DNA from: a virus
Taxonomy: Duplodnaviria; Caudoviricetes
Length of the DNA: 52,530 bases
Reading direction: 5' to 3' (one strand)
Virus record (IMG/VR): IMGVR_UViG_3300037245_003804
Coordinates: 1 to 52,530 of that record
In this document: positions 7,111 through 24,600 of the stretch, piece after piece
How the letters are laid out: every line of letters begins with the position of its first letter
How positions within the stretch are numbered: the stretch's first letter is position 1
The notes under the pieces: model-generated
Databases searched by the model: none
Told to the model about the DNA's origin: nothing
What the model saw: the letters and a program-made list of their open reading frames with translations, nothing else
Translations under genes and position numbers: made by a program

Positions 7111-7666
7111 TTTCCGAGTTCATTAACTGATGAAAAACATAATACAATTCATATCTTTTCAATGCCTTGGCTACTAAAGAAGAGTCTAGTGGTTCGTTTT
7201 TAACTTCTGCAATAATAGCTTTTAACTCTTGATTAGATGCGTCTTTATGACCAATCATCCATGTTAATATTTTACCGTTTTCTCCATTACCTATTAAATA
7301 CTTTTTCTTTTTAGGACGCTTAGGTAATTCGATACTATTGGTCAGTGCCCACTTATTAATATAACGATTTCCATTAAATTGATTAAATGATTTATTGAGT
7401 TGAGATAACTCATTTATCATTGCAACTACATCATCCCATGTTGATGGGTTGAAATTAACTTCATTAAGATGGTTAAAAGAAATTTCTCTTTTTTGTTGCA
7501 AAGTCAATAAATAACCTTTTTCTATTGAGATATTTTTATACAGCTTAGAAGCTTCCTTATAAGAAGCGCCCGCAGTAATTAAATCCTTACAAATATCATC
7601 CATATTTTTATTTTTATTATGCCCATCAACCACTATATTTTCAAAGTTACTCATATTAATCTCCAC
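7091..7666 (-). CDS. Hypothetical protein
   Basis: 191-aa ORF, GGAG RBS, downstream of a promoter-like site. Confidence 0.65.
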   Translation of the reverse strand: MEINMSNFENIVVDGHNKNKNMDDICKDLITAGASYKEASKLYKNISIEKGYLLTLQQKREISFNHLNEVNFNPSTWDDVVAMINELSQLNKSFNQFNGNRYINKWALTNSIELPKRPKKKKYLIGNGENGKILTWMIGHKDASNQELKAIIAEVKNEPLDSSLVAKALKRYELYYVFHQLMNSEIVSDNG

Positions 7667-7942: not shown

Positions 7943-9556
7943 TTAAAACTCGTATTTTATTACCGTTGCATATTTTCCTGCATTATTTACAAATATTTGG
8001 GATGGTCTTGTTAAATGCTTTGCGTTGCTGGTTAATTCGTATACATTTAATGGCATTTTTTTGTCTTTATTTAACCACCTTTTTTTAACCCACTTCTTTC
8101 CTTCTCTTCCTGCCCACCCATCATGGTCATAACAAACCCACTCACTGAATTTACTTAGCCCTTCCGTGTGGTAGGTAACGCGCATAGATGTTTTTGAGCC
8201 TTTTTTATAATGCAATGAATAAGATACACCCGCAACATTTATCCATTTTTGTAATGATTTCTTTTCCATATCAGAAAAAAGCTTACTATCTGATGCGTGT
8301 TTGGTTATTTTCTCTTCGGCCTTTTTGAATAGATGATCGCAAAATATACAATTGGTTGATACGATAGGATTTAATGTTAAGCATTCTGGGCATTCTTTTA
8401 ATGGATTACTTAAACATTTAGTGTGCCCTCTCATTTCATCTTGTTTTTGGATAATGATATTATCAATTGGCCCTAATCTTTCCGTGTTTCCTGCAAAATC
8501 CATCACTAAACAAAACTTTTTACCAGGTGCTACCCGTAATCCTCTCCCAATGGCTTGTACATGCAACACGGGACTTTTAGTAGGTCTTAACATGGCTATT
8601 AAGTCAATATGAGGCGCATCAAATCCCGTGGTTAGGATGTTTATGTTAACAACGGCTTGATAACCTTTGTTTTTGATATTGTCTATGATTGATGCCCTAT
8701 CAAATTTATTCAACTTGGAGTGCACCACCACGGAATTTATACCTTTCTCCTTTAAAGTGTCATTGATGTGATTGGCATGTTCAATGTTAATAGCGAAAAT
8801 GACCCATAATTTTAAATTCTTGCCATATTGTATTATTTCATCAATAGCTTTATCGGTTATTTTTTTCCTGTCAAAGGCATCCCCTAAATCTTTAATATTA
8901 AAATCACCAGCCGTGGTGCGAATAGTGTCCAATGACAAATTGGGATTTAATTTTTGATAAGTATTCTTAGTAATAAGTTGGCTTAAATAGCCTTCTTTAA
9001 TAAGTCGCTGGTAATCATCCAATTGGTAGGCTATACAGTTGAACAGGGCGCCATTTCCCTCCGTCAATAGGCCGTGGTTAGTTCGATAAGGGGTAGCTGT
9101 CAAACCCACGTAGGATGCGTTAACGGAGCTTAGGAAGGACCGGTACATTGTGTCAGAACGCATGGGGATCAAATGGCATTCATCAATAAGGATAATAGAA
9201 AAATGCTTAAAAAGTTCTGGGCTTTTATGGACACTTTGAATGCCAGCCACAGTAATTGGAGTGATCGTGGTTGAATTTAAACCTTTACTATAAAGGCCAA
9301 TAGGATGGGGCAATTGATACTCATTAAGAGCAGCATAGTTTTGCTTTAATATTTCAAATACATGCGATAATATTAAAACATGATTATCATCATTCAATAA
9401 TCGTTTGACAAATTCACATATTATAAGAGTTTTCCCGGACCCAGTGGGAAGAACAGCCAAGGGATATTTTTTATTCTTTAATGATTCAACGAGGGCATTA
9501 ACTGCCTCAATTTGATACCATCTTAGGTTAATAGTGGGCATCCAATTATGGCGCAA
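7943..9556 (-). CDS. SF2 DNA helicase (RadD/YejH-like) with Zn finger
   Basis: LRWYQ, PTGSGKT, DECH, GLTATPYR, TTGFDAP, QAIGRGLR, CPEC…CIFC. Confidence 0.92.
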   Translation of the reverse strand: MRHNWMPTINLRWYQIEAVNALVESLKNKKYPLAVLPTGSGKTLIICEFVKRLLNDDNHVLILSHVFEILKQNYAALNEYQLPHPIGLYSKGLNSTTITPITVAGIQSVHKSPELFKHFSIILIDECHLIPMRSDTMYRSFLSSVNASYVGLTATPYRTNHGLLTEGNGALFNCIAYQLDDYQRLIKEGYLSQLITKNTYQKLNPNLSLDTIRTTAGDFNIKDLGDAFDRKKITDKAIDEIIQYGKNLKLWVIFAINIEHANHINDTLKEKGINSVVVHSKLNKFDRASIIDNIKNKGYQAVVNINILTTGFDAPHIDLIAMLRPTKSPVLHVQAIGRGLRVAPGKKFCLVMDFAGNTERLGPIDNIIIQKQDEMRGHTKCLSNPLKECPECLTLNPIVSTNCIFCDHLFKKAEEKITKHASDSKLFSDMEKKSLQKWINVAGVSYSLHYKKGSKTSMRVTYHTEGLSKFSEWVCYDHDGWAGREGKKWVKKRWLNKDKKMPLNVYELTSNAKHLTRPSQIFVNNAGKYATVIKYEF

Positions 9557-11317: not shown

Positions 11318-12213
11318 GTTTTATCTCCTGAATAAATTTTATTATGAATCGCCTTCAACGAAGGCGCCTCCTGTTGACTTAATTTACCTGATCGGTCTTT
11401 TGCCTCATATTGACCATCACGTGTTGCTTGTATGTAATGGACGGGATTTCCATTATCATCTTTAGCAAGGCGTAAACAAAATACCTCATCAAATAAATAG
11501 GCAATATTATATGCCAACTTATTGCCTGGCATCGCTGGTAAGTAGAATGTTAAACTGGTAATATCGTCTACTATCCGTTGTTGTTTGGCTATCATCACCA
11601 CATGATAATTAGGCAAATCACGGAATCTCTTCATGATTTTAGTCATTCTGTTAAAAAGCTCACCATAAGCTTTCCTCCCATCTTTGCATTTTTCTAATTC
11701 TTCAGCTAGGACAACTTCTGCAATTTCTGTGATTGAGTCTAATATTATCCATTTAAAATTGGGCATCTTCGGCTCTTCTTTTTCGGGAATTACTGCTTTT
11801 ACATTAGAATCGGGAGGAAGAGCTATTTTGAAAGTATTATTAATCGGTGGTTCATCAGCTTTGTTTTGTTCAATTTCAGGCTCTTCCAATTCTATTTTGA
11901 TGCTATTCATTTCTAGTAATGATTCATATATGTTGGCTAATTCACCTATTGTTGATATCTCAATGACAGAACAGTGTTCTGGTGCAAAATCTTTAGATCC
12001 TTTTTTTATTAATTCTTCCTTATCTTGGTTTAATGATAACAGCCCACTTTCTGCGCTTATTATCAATGTCGGTTCATTCGTAGTTGCAGCAAGCACTGTT
12101 TTGCCGGATCCTGCTGGACCATGAATAAGTATTTTTAGACCGGAATCATGTATAACTTCTGATATCGATTTTATTTTTATAGCCATTCTTTTATTCCCCT
12201 TTTGAATTATCAT
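11314..12213 (-). CDS. AAA_24 / Sak4-like ATPase (annealase); likely start MAIKIK at 12186
   Basis: GPAGSGKT Walker A, IILDSITE Walker B, AKDRSG. Confidence 0.85.
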   Translation of the reverse strand: MIIQKGNKRMAIKIKSISEVIHDSGLKILIHGPAGSGKTVLAATTNEPTLIISAESGLLSLNQDKEELIKKGSKDFAPEHCSVIEISTIGELANIYESLLEMNSIKIELEEPEIEQNKADEPPINNTFKIALPPDSNVKAVIPEKEEPKMPNFKWIILDSITEIAEVVLAEELEKCKDGRKAYGELFNRMTKIMKRFRDLPNYHVVMIAKQQRIVDDITSLTFYLPAMPGNKLAYNIAYLFDEVFCLRLAKDDNGNPVHYIQATRDGQYEAKDRSGKLSQQEAPSLKAIHNKIYSGDKT

Positions 12214-12721
12214 CTATCATATGCGAAATTGATATGCTAGCACCTTTAATATAAGCATCAGTTAAAGGAGAATCGCTTAAATTAGCGCGGGTTAAGTCAA
12301 CACCTATCAAGTCAGCATATTTAAAATCAACTCTCCAAAAAGTAGTGTTAATACAATCCGCACCTCTCAAATCAGTGCTTCTTAAATCGGAACCTGTAAA
12401 ATTAGCGTCTCTTAATGTAGCGTGGTATAATTTAGCACCTATCAAGGTAACATTCACAATATGGGCTGCACTTAAATTAGCACAACTAAGATCAGCACCC
12501 ACCATCCATGAATCAGTTAAATCCGCATCAATCAAGTTAGCATTAGTCAAGTTAGCATGTTGAAAGTTAGCATTTCTCAAATCAGCGCTTTTTAAATAAG
12601 CCCTACTCAAGTTAACACCTCTAAAATCAGCCCTTTCGCCTTCTTTACCTTCGCTATTTAGCCATTTTTTGTGCTTTTCTAAAATTATTTTTATATCTGA
12701 TTTAGTCATATCCATCCTCAT
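12191..12721 (-). CDS. Pentapeptide-repeat protein 1
   Basis: A(D/N)Lxx repeats; ILEKHKKWL…GERADF cap. Confidence 0.92.
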   Translation of the reverse strand: MRMDMTKSDIKIILEKHKKWLNSEGKEGERADFRGVNLSRAYLKSADLRNANFQHANLTNANLIDADLTDSWMVGADLSCANLSAAHIVNVTLIGAKLYHATLRDANFTGSDLRSTDLRGADCINTTFWRVDFKYADLIGVDLTRANLSDSPLTDAYIKGASISISHMIDDNSKGE

Positions 12722-12792: not shown

Positions 12793-13380
12793 CTATCTGT
12801 TTTCTATTTCTCTATTTTTCATGGTATGTATATAGTGTTCTATGGGGAACCCATCGAAACCAATCTGCGCTCCATATTCCCACTCATATATACTTTTGTA
12901 AGGAAGAAAAGAGCATTTTGGATAATTAATCATAGGATCATTATCATGAATATGTTGTGTAATAGGAAGGTTTTTAAAGCGCTTAATTGACCATTTAAGC
13001 ACGCAACGGGGAGCACCAAATGTAATAACCTTAACTATTTCATATCCTCTTAATTCGAGCATCCGGGCTATTAACAATGCAACGGAGCCTCCTAATGAAT
13101 GGCCCGCTATTGTTATTTTATGTGTCTTTAATGTGCAAGCTCTATCTACCTTAGGAAATAGACGTTCTGCTAAAACTAAAGTTGATTTGTTACAGAATCC
13201 AATACCTGGTCTATACCACGGCATGCATTTTAAACTATTAATAGTTGCCAAAATACGGTCAACATTTTTAAATAAAAGCGTAGTAGTGTCAACAGGTCCA
13301 TAAAAAGCAGTGAAATACTCATTAGGTTTATTTATATAAAATTCTTTTATCATTTCAGCTAATTCAAGATCAGGTACCAT
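12793..13380 (-). CDS. Class 3 lipase-like alpha/beta hydrolase
   Basis: GHSLGG nucleophile elbow, ITFGAPR, HDNDP. Confidence 0.8.
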   Translation of the reverse strand: MVPDLELAEMIKEFYINKPNEYFTAFYGPVDTTTLLFKNVDRILATINSLKCMPWYRPGIGFCNKSTLVLAERLFPKVDRACTLKTHKITIAGHSLGGSVALLIARMLELRGYEIVKVITFGAPRCVLKWSIKRFKNLPITQHIHDNDPMINYPKCSFLPYKSIYEWEYGAQIGFDGFPIEHYIHTMKNREIENR

Positions 13381-13563
13381 AGTTCACCCCCACGAAAGTA
13401 TTGAGAATCAATCCCGTTTATCAAAAATATTTTATTAATCCCCTTGCGGGGTGCTCTTTCAATATGTTGATCAGACCATTAAACAACATAAAGAAAGAGC
13501 AGACCTAGCAATAAACAACATCATTCACAAATTAATTGGAATAAATCATTGCTAAGCAAAACC

Positions 13564-13592
13564 AATATACACCACAAATACTCAAATGTCAA
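13564..13592 (-). promoter_or_regulatory. Sigma70-type promoter TTGACA-N17-TATATT
   Basis: Upstream of a hairpin-rich leader and the lipase gene. Confidence 0.55.
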
Positions 13593-14014
13593 CCGAAAGT
13601 AAGCAATGGTTCTTCTTCTTTTTTTATTTCAATAGTTGGAGCGGCGGGAGATTCACTAATACATTCCCAAAAGATATGGTTTTCATCTAATTTATTCATA
13701 GCACTTTTAGAAAGGCTCGGTTTATACCTAACACAATCTAAAGCCAAATCATTATCATCAAAATTTTCTTTTAATTCAATCCATTTTGATTCATCAAGTT
13801 TGTAGGATGTGTTGTATTTTAATTTCAAATCTTTATATTGAGAATTAGATTTCCCGATCTGTTCTCCCATAATCTCTTGACATATTTCTTTTCTTAGTCG
13901 CATTTCTTCGGATTTTGCATCATCTAGCTTTTGTTTTTGAAAAGCCCAATCTCGGATTTTAATTTCTAAACTTTCTTTGTACTGAAAACCAGGCTTTATA
14001 GTATTTACTTTCAT
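13589..14014 (-). CDS. Conserved phage protein (start revised to MKVNT at 14014)
   Basis: GAGG RBS before ATG 14014; coiled coil KSEEMRLRKEI and C-terminal PAAPTIEI. Confidence 0.65.
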   Translation of the reverse strand: MKVNTIKPGFQYKESLEIKIRDWAFQKQKLDDAKSEEMRLRKEICQEIMGEQIGKSNSQYKDLKLKYNTSYKLDESKWIELKENFDDNDLALDCVRYKPSLSKSAMNKLDENHIFWECISESPAAPTIEIKKEEEPLLTFG

Positions 14015-14108
14015 TTTACATCCTCGTAATAAGGCGCCCCTGCCAATGCCGGATGGGGACAAAGACATAGTAGGAAAGGAAGGAAACCTACGTTAGGGCG
14101 CGTAATAG

Positions 14109-14684
14109 TGCAGTTGATTCGTATAACCCGCGCTATACTGGCTCAACTGCTAGGCCGTAGTGTTGAATGCAGTTGATTTTGCGCACCAGGAGGCTTATAA
14201 GACCAAAGGCACACACGGCTCAACTGCTAAGCCGTATTATTAGCATGTTAGTGTTCTGACCAACGGAACTACCACCCCATTGGGCATGACCCCATCAAGG
14301 ACGGGCAGGAGTCGAACCCGCGACCTCTAACATGCTAACAATATTCAATGCAGTTGATTCGTAGGACAGACGACCGGGGCTGCCTACCGGCTCAACTGCT
14401 AAGCCGTAAAGTGACGGCACCCCAAGGTTACCGCCCTCTTTAATAGTGTGCAGCTGATTCATAGGATAGACGACGGAGGCTACCTATCGGCTCAACTGCT
14501 AAGCCGTAGGGCAACGGCATCCCAGCGCGCTGCCGCCCTTATTGAAACAGTGTGCAGTTGATTTAACATGCCATCATATGACCTTATAAAGCTTAGGCAT
14601 GCAAGGCTCAACTGCTAAGCCATATTTGTGCAGTTGATTTGCATGATCTCGGAGATCACGTACGGCTCAACTGCGGAAGCCGTA
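14109..14684 (-). ncRNA. Array of six structured-RNA modules (+ strand TGCAGYTGATT-[variable hairpin]-GGCTCAACTGC(TA/GGA)RGCCRTA)
   Basis: Units at 14109-14159, 14168-14236, 14349-14408, 14449-14508, 14553-14624, 14629-14684; complementary flanks; compensatory changes in the inserts; no ORF in the track. Confidence 0.75.
14235..14343 (-). ncRNA. Circularly permuted, anticodon-less tRNA-like element
   Basis: On the - strand the 3' half (AGGTC, GCGGG-TTCGACT-CCTGC, CCGTCCT) precedes the 5' half (GGGGTGG-TA-GTTC-CGTTGGTCA-GAAC-A-CTAAC); the anticodon stem is extended into a 17-bp closing helix. Confidence 0.75.
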
Positions 14685-14742
14685 TGGTTTAGCCGGGCGG
14701 GAAGTGCTCTTGCCACACTGAATTGCCGGCCTCCAATAGGGG

Positions 14743-15354
14743 TTAATCTAATAGCTTAATAGTCATATAATTGGTTAAGGTTCTTAAATTGGCCATAAAA
14801 GGTCTACAGCTTTGATTAAAATCCCAATCCATATAAGGTGAAAAGTCCGTAGTGTTCGCCGGAGTTTGGATTGTTTTAGCATCACAATCCAGTTTACTTC
14901 TCAATATGAACGCATTATTACCATTAATTATTCTTAGATTCAACTCAGTATGAGAGTAAAGGTGTAAATCTGAATATTCACCCACATTCTCCACATCAAA
15001 TCCAATCGTAACTAATTGTTCACCACCCCCCCTTAAACTGTCAAATTTTGAGTTATAAAGTAGCGTATTTTTTGCGCTAATATAAGCCGGAACATTTTGC
15101 GTGTCATAGGCCGCATAACCAAACTCAAAGCCTTCGACAACACCTAGTGGCACTGGGTGCACAATCACATAGCGATTCCTGCCGTTCTTGGGTGCCCAAG
15201 GTATCCCTACCATTATATAGTCGAGGCCACCCACGGTTATAATATCACCTACATTAGAAGGGATATGCTTATAAGTATAGGTTGTGCCAGAAAATACCAT
15301 TGCGCTGCATAAAACCAAACTTAACGCTATTAATGCTTTTATTGATTTCTTCAT
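14743..15354 (-). CDS. Secreted/periplasmic protein (moron-like)
   Basis: Sec signal peptide MKKSIKALIALSLVLCSAMVFS; GAGAGG RBS; own promoter at 15427-15454. Confidence 0.75.
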   Translation of the reverse strand: MKKSIKALIALSLVLCSAMVFSGTTYTYKHIPSNVGDIITVGGLDYIMVGIPWAPKNGRNRYVIVHPVPLGVVEGFEFGYAAYDTQNVPAYISAKNTLLYNSKFDSLRGGGEQLVTIGFDVENVGEYSDLHLYSHTELNLRIINGNNAFILRSKLDCDAKTIQTPANTTDFSPYMDWDFNQSCRPFMANLRTLTNYMTIKLLD

Positions 15355-15426
15355 TATATTCCTCTCATTTTTGAAATAAAATAAAGTCCTTTTTAAGAAT
15401 TACTCATATCCTATGAATAAAGTACT

Positions 15427-15454
15427 ATTGTACGCGTAAATTACTTTATGTCAA
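15427..15454 (-). promoter_or_regulatory. Sigma70-type promoter TTGACA-N16-TACAAT
   Basis: Intergenic; upstream of the secreted-protein gene and the RNA array. Confidence 0.65.
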
Positions 15455-15475
15455 CTATTAAATGATATTATATTG

Positions 15476-15691
15476 CTATAGTTCTTCGGATGAATTTTTC
15501 ATCGATTTACTATATTTGTCAATCCACTCTTCTATTGCTTTTTTATCATAAAGGACTGATCGCCCTAACTTGATATATATTGGGGAAGGGTAGCCATATA
15601 GGGTTCCCATCACTCGTGAGGTTCTTAATGTGAATTGAGAGCAACCAATGTATTGTGCAGCTTCTTTTGTTTTTAGTCTTTTTATGAGCAT
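15476..15691 (-). CDS. Excisionase/AlpA-like HTH protein (paralog of 6874-7110)
   Basis: LKTKEAAQYIG…PIYIKLGRSVLYDKKAIEEWI. Confidence 0.82.
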   Translation of the reverse strand: MLIKRLKTKEAAQYIGCSQFTLRTSRVMGTLYGYPSPIYIKLGRSVLYDKKAIEEWIDKYSKSMKNSSEEL

Positions 15692-15697
15692 AATTTG

Positions 15698-15997
15698 TTA
15701 TTTTCCTTTAATTAAATTCCTATTATCTTCCCCCATAGATCCACAAAATAAATCTGACCATAAATTAAAATGAAGATTTGTTGTGCTTTCAGAAGTCCAT
15801 AATTTTTTAAATATAATCAGATTATGTACAATGCTATCGTTATCATAAACCCACCCTGGTATATCAAGTCTATACTTATGGTAGTATACCTCTAATATAT
15901 GAAATACCTCTATGAAGTTATTAATATACATACCGTCGTAGTTTACCCTTAATAATGCACATATATTCCTTACTATTAATTCATTATTTCTAGTCAT
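15698..15997 (-). CDS. Hypothetical protein (possible paralog of 16011-16280)
   Basis: INNFIEVF…IVHNLIIFKKL…FNLWSDLF aligns by eye with the neighbour. Confidence 0.55.
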   Translation of the reverse strand: MTRNNELIVRNICALLRVNYDGMYINNFIEVFHILEVYYHKYRLDIPGWVYDNDSIVHNLIIFKKLWTSESTTNLHFNLWSDLFCGSMGEDNRNLIKGK

Positions 15998-16010
15998 TTA
16001 AATCCCCTAG

Positions 16011-16280
16011 TTATATTTCTAAAAAGCGCATATACTCATGAAACTGATTCTTCCAACAATAAAAAGAAAAAGTCTGATCATTTTTATAAGTCTTTAATTC
16101 TTTAAATCGCAAAAGATCAGTAATAATGTCATTATGATTGCGACCTTTAAGCTTATATACATAATAGAGAAGATATATTTTTATAAAATCATCAATATTG
16201 ACATCTTTATATTCTATCCCACAACTCGAATATAGTTGTTTTATTTTTGCGTTATCTAATGAACGACGCCTTTTTTTCAA
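16011..16280 (-). CDS. Hypothetical protein
   Basis: IDDFIKIY…IITDLLRFKEL…FYCWKNQF. Confidence 0.55.
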   Translation of the reverse strand: MKKRRRSLDNAKIKQLYSSCGIEYKDVNIDDFIKIYLLYYVYKLKGRNHNDIITDLLRFKELKTYKNDQTFSFYCWKNQFHEYMRFLEI

Positions 16281-16291
16281 TTCTTCATCAT

Positions 16292-16864
16292 TTATGGCTC
16301 ATAATCCTCAGGAAATTTAGTGCCTTCCAAATAGCAATGGCTCAAGTTAGAAAACCTAAAATTTACCATGCGGAAGTCAGCACGCCTTAAATCAGAACCG
16401 TACAAGTTAGCACCAGTCAAGTTAGAATACCTGAAATCTGCATTATTTAAATTAGAAAAGCTCAAGTTAGAATAACTTAAATCAACACGCATTAAATCAG
16501 CTCCCCATAACGTAGCTCCTGTAAAGTCAGTATTTTCTAAATCGGAAAACTGTAAATTAGCATTTTTTAACCAAGCACCTCTAAAATCAACACCTATCAT
16601 CTTGGCACGTTTTAAACAAGTATCTGTCAAATCAGCACGGCTTAAATTAGCAGCCATTAAGTTAGCATCAGTAAAAATAGTATGTCTTAATCTGCAAAAA
16701 TTTAAATCAATACCTATCAGTATAGATTCTCTTAAATCAACACCATCCAAATCCTCACCTGTTAGTACTTGATGACTTAAATCAGCTTGCTCACCTTTTT
16801 TGCATTTACTTTCCAACCATTCTTTATGCTTTTCCAAAATAATATATAAATCTGATTTTTTCAT
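16292..16864 (-). CDS. Pentapeptide-repeat protein 2
   Basis: A(D/N)Lxx repeats; ILEKHKEWL…GEQADL cap; FPEDYEP end. Confidence 0.92.
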   Translation of the reverse strand: MKKSDLYIILEKHKEWLESKCKKGEQADLSHQVLTGEDLDGVDLRESILIGIDLNFCRLRHTIFTDANLMAANLSRADLTDTCLKRAKMIGVDFRGAWLKNANLQFSDLENTDFTGATLWGADLMRVDLSYSNLSFSNLNNADFRYSNLTGANLYGSDLRRADFRMVNFRFSNLSHCYLEGTKFPEDYEP

Positions 16865-17685
16865 GGTTTATAATCCTTAGGAAAGATAATAGTATGATCT
16901 AAATAGCATTTTTCCATGTTGATATTTTTAAGATTTGCTGTACTAAAGTCGGCATTTTTTAATGTAACTCCCCTTAATTTAGCGTTACTTAAATTAGTAT
17001 ACAGAAAACTGACATAGCTCAAGTCCGCATCAGTCAAGTCAACACCAGTCAAGTCAGCGCCATTCAAGCTAGAGCCTATCAATTTAGCGCCATATAACTC
17101 AGCATTTACCAAGCGAGCATCCCATAAAGAAGCCCCTAAAAAATCAACTTCTTGTAAGTTAGCATTCATTAAGTTAGCTTCTTTTAAATCAGAACAATTT
17201 AAGCTAGCGCGAGTCAAGTCAGCTTTACTTAAATTAGTATTTCTCAATTTAGAATAATTTAAATTAGCGCCACTTAAATTAGCTTCACTCAAGTCAGCTT
17301 CACTTAAATCATAACCGACTAAGTCAGCGTTACTTAAATCAGCTCTTTCGCCACTTTCTCCTTTGGTATGCAACCATTCCCTATGTTTTTCTAATATGAT
17401 TTGTAATTCTGTTTTATTTATTGTTGTATGTTCATATCCTTTTAATAATGTACATGTAACAAAATAATCCCAATCTGTGGTAGGTTTATATAATTTTTTA
17501 AAAAACGGCTCGCATCTCATAATAAACGAAAGTTCTTTATTTCTTTTATCAGTTTGAAATGTATCTTCACAATTTGAATCATCTAAATGTTTATAGTTGC
17601 CCTTTAATTCAAAAAAATAAAAACTATCAATTGATTCGCGTTCATTATAGGTATGTCTTACCATAAAGCATGTGTATGTAATCAT
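16861..17685 (-). CDS. PTKDWDYF-domain plus pentapeptide-repeat fusion protein
   Basis: N-terminal FFELKGNYKHL…KPTTDWDYFV, then ILEKHREWL…GERADL and pentapeptide repeats. Confidence 0.88.
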   Translation of the reverse strand: MITYTCFMVRHTYNERESIDSFYFFELKGNYKHLDDSNCEDTFQTDKRNKELSFIMRCEPFFKKLYKPTTDWDYFVTCTLLKGYEHTTINKTELQIILEKHREWLHTKGESGERADLSNADLVGYDLSEADLSEANLSGANLNYSKLRNTNLSKADLTRASLNCSDLKEANLMNANLQEVDFLGASLWDARLVNAELYGAKLIGSSLNGADLTGVDLTDADLSYVSFLYTNLSNAKLRGVTLKNADFSTANLKNINMEKCYLDHTIIFPKDYKP

Positions 17686-24523: not shown

Positions 24524-24600
24524 CGGGGTATAGCGCAGCCTGGTAGCGCATCCGCTTTGGGAGTGGAGGGCCGGGAGTTCAAATCTCCCTACCCCGACCA
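24524..24600 (+). tRNA. trnP: tRNA-Pro(UGG)
   Basis: 77-nt cloverleaf: CGGGGTA/TACCCCG acceptor, TCCGC-TTTGGGA-GTGGA anticodon arm, GTTCAAATC T loop, encoded ACCA. Confidence 0.95.

Follow-up and report, generated by a model that had tools for sequence, protein, structure and literature searches.

What is a structure shaped like transfer RNA (tRNA), yet lacking an anticodon loop, doing in the middle of an array of RNA pseudoknots in a phage genome? This question is raised by the IMG/VR virus record IMGVR_UViG_3300037245_003804 (Duplodnaviria; Caudoviricetes), which we analyzed at its full length of 52,530 bp (the window; completeness estimate ~70%, GC content 34.7%). On the minus strand, an intercistronic structured region at 14016..14742 carries a ~700-nt GC-rich array of six pseudoknot modules, and modules 4 and 5 are joined by a 113-nt linker, which an earlier note, made from the sequence without database searches, had described as a circularly permuted, anticodon-less and CCA-less tRNA mimic. 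On balance, we favor the view that this linker is a genuine tRNA-shaped module with the architecture of Y RNA-like A (YrlA) RNAs, inserted in the pseudoknot-array RNA, where it would serve as a handle for host proteins that bind the tRNA shape.

All eleven pieces of the mimic named in the earlier note were found on the minus strand at 14235–14343, in the order that it gave. The element opens with the 5' strand of a stalk (14343–14327), whose 17 pairs with 14235–14251 replace the 3' side of the anticodon stem and extend it by 12 further pairs. It continues with the variable loop AGGUC (tRNA positions 44–48; 14326–14322), whose C48 is able to make a Levitt pair with G15, and with the T arm (GCGGG, loop UUCGACU, CCUGC; 14321–14305), which aligns to the T arm of the Rfam family YrlA and to that of our model R1 (see below). 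The acceptor 3' strand CCGUCCU (14304–14298) forms seven out of seven pairs, three of them G-U, with the acceptor 5' strand GGGGUGG (14278–14272). What had been taken for a discriminator U plus an 18-nt linker amounts to one 19-nt loop that closes the acceptor (14297–14279), in which a 4-bp UGGG/CCCA extension with a hexaloop is possible; the discriminator U is not followed by CCA. Beyond the acceptor come U8-A9 (14271–14270), the D arm (GUUC, loop CGUUGGUCA, GAAC; 14269–14253), in which G18 and G19 are kept and C14 stands instead of A14, A26 (14252) and the stalk 3' strand (14251–14235), which overlaps module 5 by one base, 14235, its own last and the first of the module.

The stalk, which occupies the place of the anticodon loop as the earlier note had it, consists of 17 pairs including one G-U and is the sole inverted repeat reported for 13900–14800. 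It is internally repetitive, since GUUAG-CAU-GUUAG pairs with CUAAC-AUG-CUAAU, and its appearance is that of a 5-bp anticodon stem lengthened by duplication. The linkers UUGAA before the stalk (14344–14348) and UUCAA after module 5 (14163–14167) are also complementary on the minus strand and would enclose the mimic together with this module; their pairing is absent from the minimum free energy (MFE) fold and may be due to chance. We also considered a mobile element with the stalk as its terminal inverted repeats and rejected it: there is no flanking target duplication and no second copy in the window.

In its native order the element was not called as a tRNA either by ARAGORN or by the Rfam tRNA model. 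The halves were then rejoined by a script with a dummy 7-nt anticodon loop and a GCCA tail, as the earlier note had suggested. With all four dummy loops ARAGORN, run at default thresholds, called a canonical 77-nt cloverleaf tRNA, and none of 500 shuffled versions of the halves passed, which bears out the structural reading. The nucleotides of the tertiary contacts are present as well (G18 G19, the UUCGA T loop, G53:C61, G15:C48 and U8-A9); the claim that the elbow determinants are complete thus holds except at position 14, which is a C. Five out of the 37 proposed pairs are G-U, and on the plus strand these become A-C mismatches; thus, the minus strand is the functional one. The stalk is retained in both the MFE and the centroid folds of a 126-nt and a 730-nt RNA.

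In permuted transfer-messenger RNA (tmRNA) genes, a tRNA-like domain in permuted order sits on a stem and is flanked by pseudoknots. The succession found here (pseudoknots, stalk, T arm with acceptor 3' strand, spacer, acceptor 5' strand, stalk, pseudoknots) has the same topology, so that the element could be the tRNA-like domain of a two-piece, tmRNA-like RNA, with the modules as its pseudoknots. We rejected this candidate on the ARAGORN results and consider it extremely improbable: no tmRNA was called at the default, 90% or 80% thresholds, while at 70% the calls were incoherent and fell on both strands, and no Rfam tmRNA family matched at E ≤10. Besides, the element differs from two-piece tmRNAs in having a full D arm, in lacking CCA and a credible tag frame, and in its third acceptor pair, which is G3:C70 and not G3:U70, the alanine identity pair.

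A known system matches the element much more closely, and the earlier note had overlooked it: a circularly permuted, anticodon-less tRNA mimic is an already known design, and its topology is that of the tRNA-like domain of bacterial and phage YrlA RNAs. These RNAs are described from bacteria and mycobacteriophage, and their tRNA-mimicking effector domain runs from a T arm through a loop-capped acceptor-like stem and a UA linker to a D arm; their 5' and 3' ends form a stem carrying GNCGAAN0-1G, the presumed contact of Ro60/Rsr, and the YrlA gene lies at most about 4 kb from rsr on the same strand (PMC4201824; bioRxiv 10.1101/312249). Phage YrlAs and long-acceptor variants are listed in the supplement of Chen 2014 (PMC4201824), and elements like the present one may already be among them.

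The window element has in common with YrlA (i) the order of variable region, T arm, loop-closed acceptor-like stem, UA and D arm, carried on a stem formed by the 5' and 3' flanks; (ii) the lack of an anticodon loop and of CCA, and the possible Levitt pair G15:C48; and (iii) a 7-bp acceptor, as in M. smegmatis YrlA. The D and T stems, nearly invariant in YrlA, give a mixed picture: the T stem 5' strand GCGGG equals the consensus, and the D stem GUUC/GAAC differs from the GCUC/GAGC of YrlA by a compensated change, and the GUUC variant was also seen, alone among the relatives listed, in the TROVE-linked phage record L202. The differences concern the stem and the setting. YrlA has a bulged Ro-binding stem with internal loops and is a free RNA of ~110 nt, whereas the window stalk is an unbroken 17-bp helix, and the element, with its C14, sits in a larger repeat RNA. 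What distinguishes the window copy is the absence of a Ro-type gene from the record and of the Ro motif, the unbroken stalk, the long acceptor arm, C14 and the pseudoknot-array setting.

A permissive Rfam scan of 13000–17000 gave a single family with E <1, namely YrlA (RF02553), which matched 14223–14349 on the minus strand over model positions 1–114 of 114 (36.5 bits, E 1.5e-5). This score lies below the RF02553 gathering cut-off of 69 bits. The same cut-off, however, misses all 31 phage records with closed-acceptor elements that we examined, 22 of them with a TROVE gene: these mostly Ro-linked records scored from 27.8 to 56 bits, and the 36.5 bits of the window therefore fall within their range.

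These phage relatives were found with a degenerate pattern (T loop, gap of 10–24 nt, D arm) in IMG/VR phage contigs, which gave at least 120 stretches and at least 129 matches. Among 129 matches listed, both halves lay in ARAGORN-called tRNAs in 82 cases and neither half did in at least 33, a count that is a lower bound also because the gap limit of 24 leaves out acceptor arms as long as that of the window. In 31 of the 33 elements listed, the intervening 16–22 nt folds into a hairpin of 5–9 bp, its sequence differing from element to element. The 31-element alignment shows changes on both sides in six out of seven pairs of the acceptor helix, and 97.2% of its cells pair, a value slightly inflated because L128 and L197, in which the inter-arm segment does not fold, were omitted. 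The covariation score of the acceptor was 0.710 vs. 0.169 in shuffles (none of 500 reached it) and 0.064–0.141 when the alignment was slid.

The relatives (e.g., L108, L172, L176, L201 and L202) have the same core as the window element, with the invariant C-G pair that closes the acceptor beside the T arm, U8-A9, the G18 G19 loop and, in 17 of the 33 listed, the variable loop AGGUC; in its design the window element is thus kin to a large set of phage YrlA-like elements. They differ from it in that their acceptor segment is 16–22 nt long (with the pattern gap limited to 24), in contrast to 33 nt in the window, and in that none of them shows pseudoknot modules with GCAGUUGA. A 20-nt string that runs from the stalk through its junction with the T arm into the T loop is found exactly in one other contig, L108, whose element has a closed acceptor (6 bp and a UUCG loop), scores 47.2 bits as a YrlA core and lies 90 nt downstream of a gene for a DUF2828+DUF7788 protein.

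Most of the records with related elements carry a Ro-type gene. A gene search of the 31 records (L129 was left out of the record-level searches) revealed TROVE in 22 and DUF2828 in five more, four of them over the cut-off, so that 27 out of 31 carry a Ro-type gene and four carry neither. Where coordinates were compared in the Ro-linked records, the gene is located within about 1–2 kb of the element, on the same strand. In three of the four records without it, the element lies inside a phage tRNA gene cluster (L212 at 8195–8257, L217 at 7553–7616 and L123 at 221–283); the clusters of L212 and L217 also hold tmRNA, and of the three records two are complete genomes and one is 20% complete.

In the window itself, TROVE, DUF2828 and DUF7788 gave no match in the whole 52.5-kb record, the last two even at E ≤1, which leaves 14 kb on one side of the element and 38 kb on the other free of a Ro-type gene. 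GNCGAAN0-1G was not found in 14016–14745; the nearest match (15131–15138) lies within the upstream coding sequence (CDS), and the counts of this motif across the window are not above those of shuffles. These results bear on a classical Y RNA, in which the stalk or the modules would bind a protein of the Ro60/Rsr type, its gene lying in the host or in the ~30% of the phage genome that the record lacks, and the tRNA-like domain would tether an effector such as PNPase. The architecture equal to that of YrlA, the frequency of TROVE or DUF2828 among the phage records with such elements, the record being just ~70% complete, and the fact that several Ro-linked loci have a short motif repeated at least three times close to their tRNA-like element all speak for it. 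We nevertheless consider it unlikely, because the record contains no Ro-type gene, which in the Ro-linked relatives is a close neighbor, the array has no Ro motif, and the stalk is without the internal loops of YrlA.

The reading of the element as a genuine YrlA-type module has to be weighed against several observations. First, no homologue of either the element or the array was found, so that, with a single sequence at hand, there is no covariation for the window copy itself, and it comes from a record without the Ro-type gene that most related records possess. Second, the base at position 14 is nearly universally A, the partner of U8, and it is A in all 33 related phage elements listed; its replacement by C means that the U8-A14 contact is lost. 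Third, the tRNA-like structure (−41.7 kcal/mol) is not the MFE structure (−45.5 kcal/mol): an alternative fold, which still contains the stalk, lies 3.8 kcal/mol lower. Fourth, the model scores do not discriminate. RF02553 matched 36 out of 40 tRNA-rich phage records at E ≤0.01, with full-length alignments of up to 33.5 bits; in this connection Chen 2014 (PMC4201824) warns that dimeric tRNAs can give false positives. Model R1, which we built from the 31 closed-acceptor phage elements with the window left out, gave 49.0 bits for the element (E 1.2e-12) and 8.7 bits for the next-best match in the window, and tandem tRNA junctions reach 62.3 bits with it. We rejected R1 as a membership test, since such junctions score equal to or above the element. 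As the two overlap in their scores, membership is not decidable by models, and the 36.5 bits neither include the element in YrlA nor exclude it. The argument thus depends on the closed acceptor, on the stalk and on the lack of outer tRNA halves.

These three characters are also what sets the element apart from tandem tRNA genes. The junction of two tandem tRNAs likewise consists of a 3' tRNA half, a spacer and a 5' tRNA half, and its scores with YrlA-type models are similar; the outer halves, however, are kept there and ARAGORN calls two tRNAs (in 71 of 82 and in 82 of 129 pattern matches). In the window element ARAGORN calls none; the two acceptor strands form a helix with one another, and the flanks form a second helix of 17 bp. 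The 5' half of the element shares 26 of 32 positions with a variant E. coli tRNA-Asp (this one with A14), and the 3' half shares 27 of 34 with the tRNA-Asp of Salmonella phage SPAsTU; given the weak BLAST E-values of the halves (0.3 and 1), this is a resemblance and no proof. From the sequence, we infer that the order of the parts would be expected from a tandem duplication of a tRNA-Asp-type gene minus the outer halves. Candidate homologues with a tRNA-Asp-type D arm were rejected: among 82 pattern matches, 71 were tandem tRNAs, and the other 11, on visual inspection, had an intron, were truncated by the end of a contig or were unusual in some other way; none showed a long stalk or C14.

The element might accordingly be a functionless, decaying remnant of two tandem tRNA-Asp genes, or a recombined tRNA fragment. 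The tRNA-Asp likeness of the halves, the similar scores of tandem junctions and C14, taken as a defect, agree with this. However, the outer halves have not merely degraded: two strands that pair over 17 bp stand in their place. In addition, the acceptor is paired throughout and all stems are intact, differences being absorbed as G-U pairs and not as mismatches, and the closed design is kept, with covariation, in 31 of the 33 comparable phage elements listed. We find a remnant very unlikely.

The sequence shows a T arm, a loop-closed acceptor and a D arm carried on a long stem that stands in for the anticodon arm, and such an element cannot decode. Under the preferred reading, the tip of the rigid stalk would most likely expose a tRNA elbow, together with an acceptor/T stack of 7+5 bp, to host proteins, and by analogy with the YrlA precedents host tRNA-handling proteins should recognize it. 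The YrlA of S. Typhimurium is described as modified by TruB and DusA, and that of M. smegmatis, the one species with a 7-bp acceptor, as cut by RNase P and then gaining CCA (PMC4201824). It can be hypothesized that the element folds in this way in vivo, that RNase P, TruB or Dus recognize it and that it has a role in the array. The most specific of these putative steps is a cut by RNase P between U14279 (−1) and G14278 (+1), which would open the acceptor loop and leave the array RNA in two pieces joined by 24 base pairs, comparable to M. smegmatis YrlA. The RNase P-type features present in the sequence are the 7-bp acceptor with the 5-bp T stem, U at −1 and G at +1. A built-in processing site for the array, one of two functions proposed in the earlier note, is thus plausible by analogy. 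It should be mentioned that the core is weakened by C14, which is a point against cleavage; that, in the account of Chen 2014 (PMC4201824), no cleavage was seen for the Salmonella or Deinococcus RNAs; and that the relatives mostly have a tight acceptor loop, so that RNase P cleavage is not suggested as a general feature. If cleavage is directed by the element, a bacterial virus would provide an example of a long noncoding transcript punctuated in a tRNA-like manner.

The other proposed function was that of an uncleavable decoy for the anticodon nucleases PrrC, RloC or AriB. These enzymes act on the anticodon loop, precisely the part that the element lacks, and this version of the proposal is weakly grounded. 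In a broader form, the element would be a decoy or sponge that titrates a host anti-phage factor binding or cutting tRNA. The location fits this, since the array belongs to an accessory segment of the early region and has three pentapeptide-repeat proteins as neighbors, and phage tRNAs that counter tRNA-targeting defences are documented (PMC10264068, PMC11555353). Sponges, however, are usually multi-copy or highly expressed, and this element is present as a single copy; we regard such a role as distinctly improbable.

YrlA-type mimics have so far been understood as partners of Ro60/Rsr, while the window copy, which has no Ro-type gene in the record and no Ro motif, is wired into a repeat RNA. 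Together with the three elements located in tRNA clusters, it suggests that the tRNA-shaped module is a portable part reused in other phage RNAs. A further conjecture, which we hold to be quite unlikely, is that the ~700-nt RNA resembles a Y RNA cluster but is made of RNA only and needs no Ro: the six pseudoknots, identical in their cores, would bind or titrate one protein, and the stalked module would bring a tRNA-recognizing enzyme (RNase P, a CCA-adding enzyme or an exoribonuclease) into this particle. If so, host RNA processing would be rewired or a defence factor neutralized without the need for a phage Ro protein.

The six pseudoknot modules themselves are located on the minus strand at 14629–14683 (m1), 14553–14623 (m2), 14449–14507 (m3), 14349–14407 (m4), 14168–14235 (m5) and 14109–14158 (m6). 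Every module combines a short stem and a GCAGUUGA-bearing loop with a variable hairpin and, after it, UCAACUGC; the core is invariant. The sequence GCAGTTGAGCC occurs in six copies, on the minus strand only, and none of 100 shuffles reached six. The variable hairpins differ in sequence, and on reading them we found pairing possible in every one. They are of three kinds (m1 and m6 are short, m3 and m4 are alike, and so are m2 and m5), and some base-pair differences within m3/m4 and within m2/m5 appear by eye to be compensated. On the minus strand, the linkers m2–m3 (14508–14552) and m3–m4 (14408–14448) carry GC-rich hairpins that are related to each other and belong to a 76-nt repeat with 84% identity. 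The GC content of 14069–14742 (674 bases) is 51.5%, compared with 34.7% for the window, and the 730-nt region folds with a z-score of −4.78, none of 20 shuffles folding equally well.

Homologues next to the pseudoknot motif, for which the earlier note had proposed a search, did not come to light. The modules matched no Rfam family. Exact and gapped scans for the array motif in viral, genome and metagenome contigs gave single-copy matches in coding-like sequence without the 5' stem; blastn of the 661-nt array against phages and plasmids gave no match, and a single module matched phages at E ≥2 only, within CDSs. In novelty, the array may surpass the tRNA mimic.

Since one 8-bp site occurs twelve times in the array, its orientation alternating, and the array lies near genes for a Sak4-like annealing protein, an SSB-like DUF669 protein, a Cas4-type exonuclease and a helicase, the repeats could also be protein sites at the DNA level, such as origin iterons or a recombination site in a replication module, with the tRNA-like piece being incidental. 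But the G-U pairs make the structures strand-specific, the variable hairpins pair despite their different sequences, the elevated GC content in an AT-richer genome is typical of structured RNA, and there is no DNA-level rationale for a complete cloverleaf-compatible element; DNA sites are in our opinion highly improbable.

The structured region is located between an upstream gene for a 203-residue protein (14743..15354, minus strand), which has a hydrophobic N-terminus and no family match, and a downstream open reading frame (ORF) of the DUF7173 family (PF23791; 13589..14014, minus strand), whose likely true start is the ATG at 14014 after GAGGA. A promoter-like site, TTGACA and TACAAT spaced by 16 nt (11 of 12 consensus positions), lies 5' of the 203-residue ORF at 15427..15454 on the minus strand and, judged by this match alone, is the likely transcript start for the array RNA. 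No terminator-like site was found in 13400–15800. From these two observations, the array is likely co-transcribed with the flanking genes. Public sequencing runs listed with the window DNA comprise one DNA run and no RNA run.

Other minus-strand genes nearby encode, besides the Sak4-like protein, the Cas4-type exonuclease and the helicase, a lipase-like protein and the DUF669 protein, which is annotated as binding single-stranded DNA in phage VpKK5. RNA-repair and tRNA enzymes were absent from the 30 ORFs scanned. The only tRNA of the window is a tRNA-Pro at 24524–24600, 10 kb from the element, and, unlike the mimic, it has an encoded CCA; there is no tRNA cluster around the element.

The phage probably comes from a marine sediment metagenome, which is the one DNA run mentioned above and contains an identical contig. 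The closest annotated phages are Queuovirinae-type siphoviruses of Vibrio, Pseudomonas and Alteromonas, with at most 38% identity. The flanking proteins had no relative among viral contigs, and a search with Sak4 gave one viral contig with 38% identity and annotated phages with no more than 38%. The gap upstream of the DUF7173 homologue is just 176 nt in Vibrio phage VpKK5, and in Alteromonas phage R7M the annotated CDS overlaps the end of the upstream gene, leaving no gap at all; hence, there is no space for the array at either locus.

Several minor observations were made in the window and in the related records. Three genes for pentapeptide-repeat proteins are located around the array region (12191–12721, 16292–16864 and 16861–17685, minus strand); they are possible DNA mimics or anti-defence genes. 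A 55-residue ORF (14295–14462, minus strand) lies wholly within the structured array, spanning module 4 and half of the tRNA mimic, and is most likely not a gene. In the phage contig L061, positions 850–920 of the plus strand contain a T arm and a D arm, neither of them called as tRNA, and the spacer between them seems partly complementary at its two ends, so that a further long-acceptor mimic may be present there. Finally, DUF2828, in part with DUF7788, takes the place of TROVE beside the mimics in five of the 31 records: L108 (5552–7200), L156, L197, L228 and, weakly, L111. A full-text literature search on DUF2828 revealed no paper linking it to such RNAs. A CAGCAA motif is located upstream, ACAGCAATT being present in three copies in L108 and ACAGCAATG likewise in three copies in L197, and DUF2828 together with these RNAs may represent a second pairing of a Ro-like protein with Y RNA.

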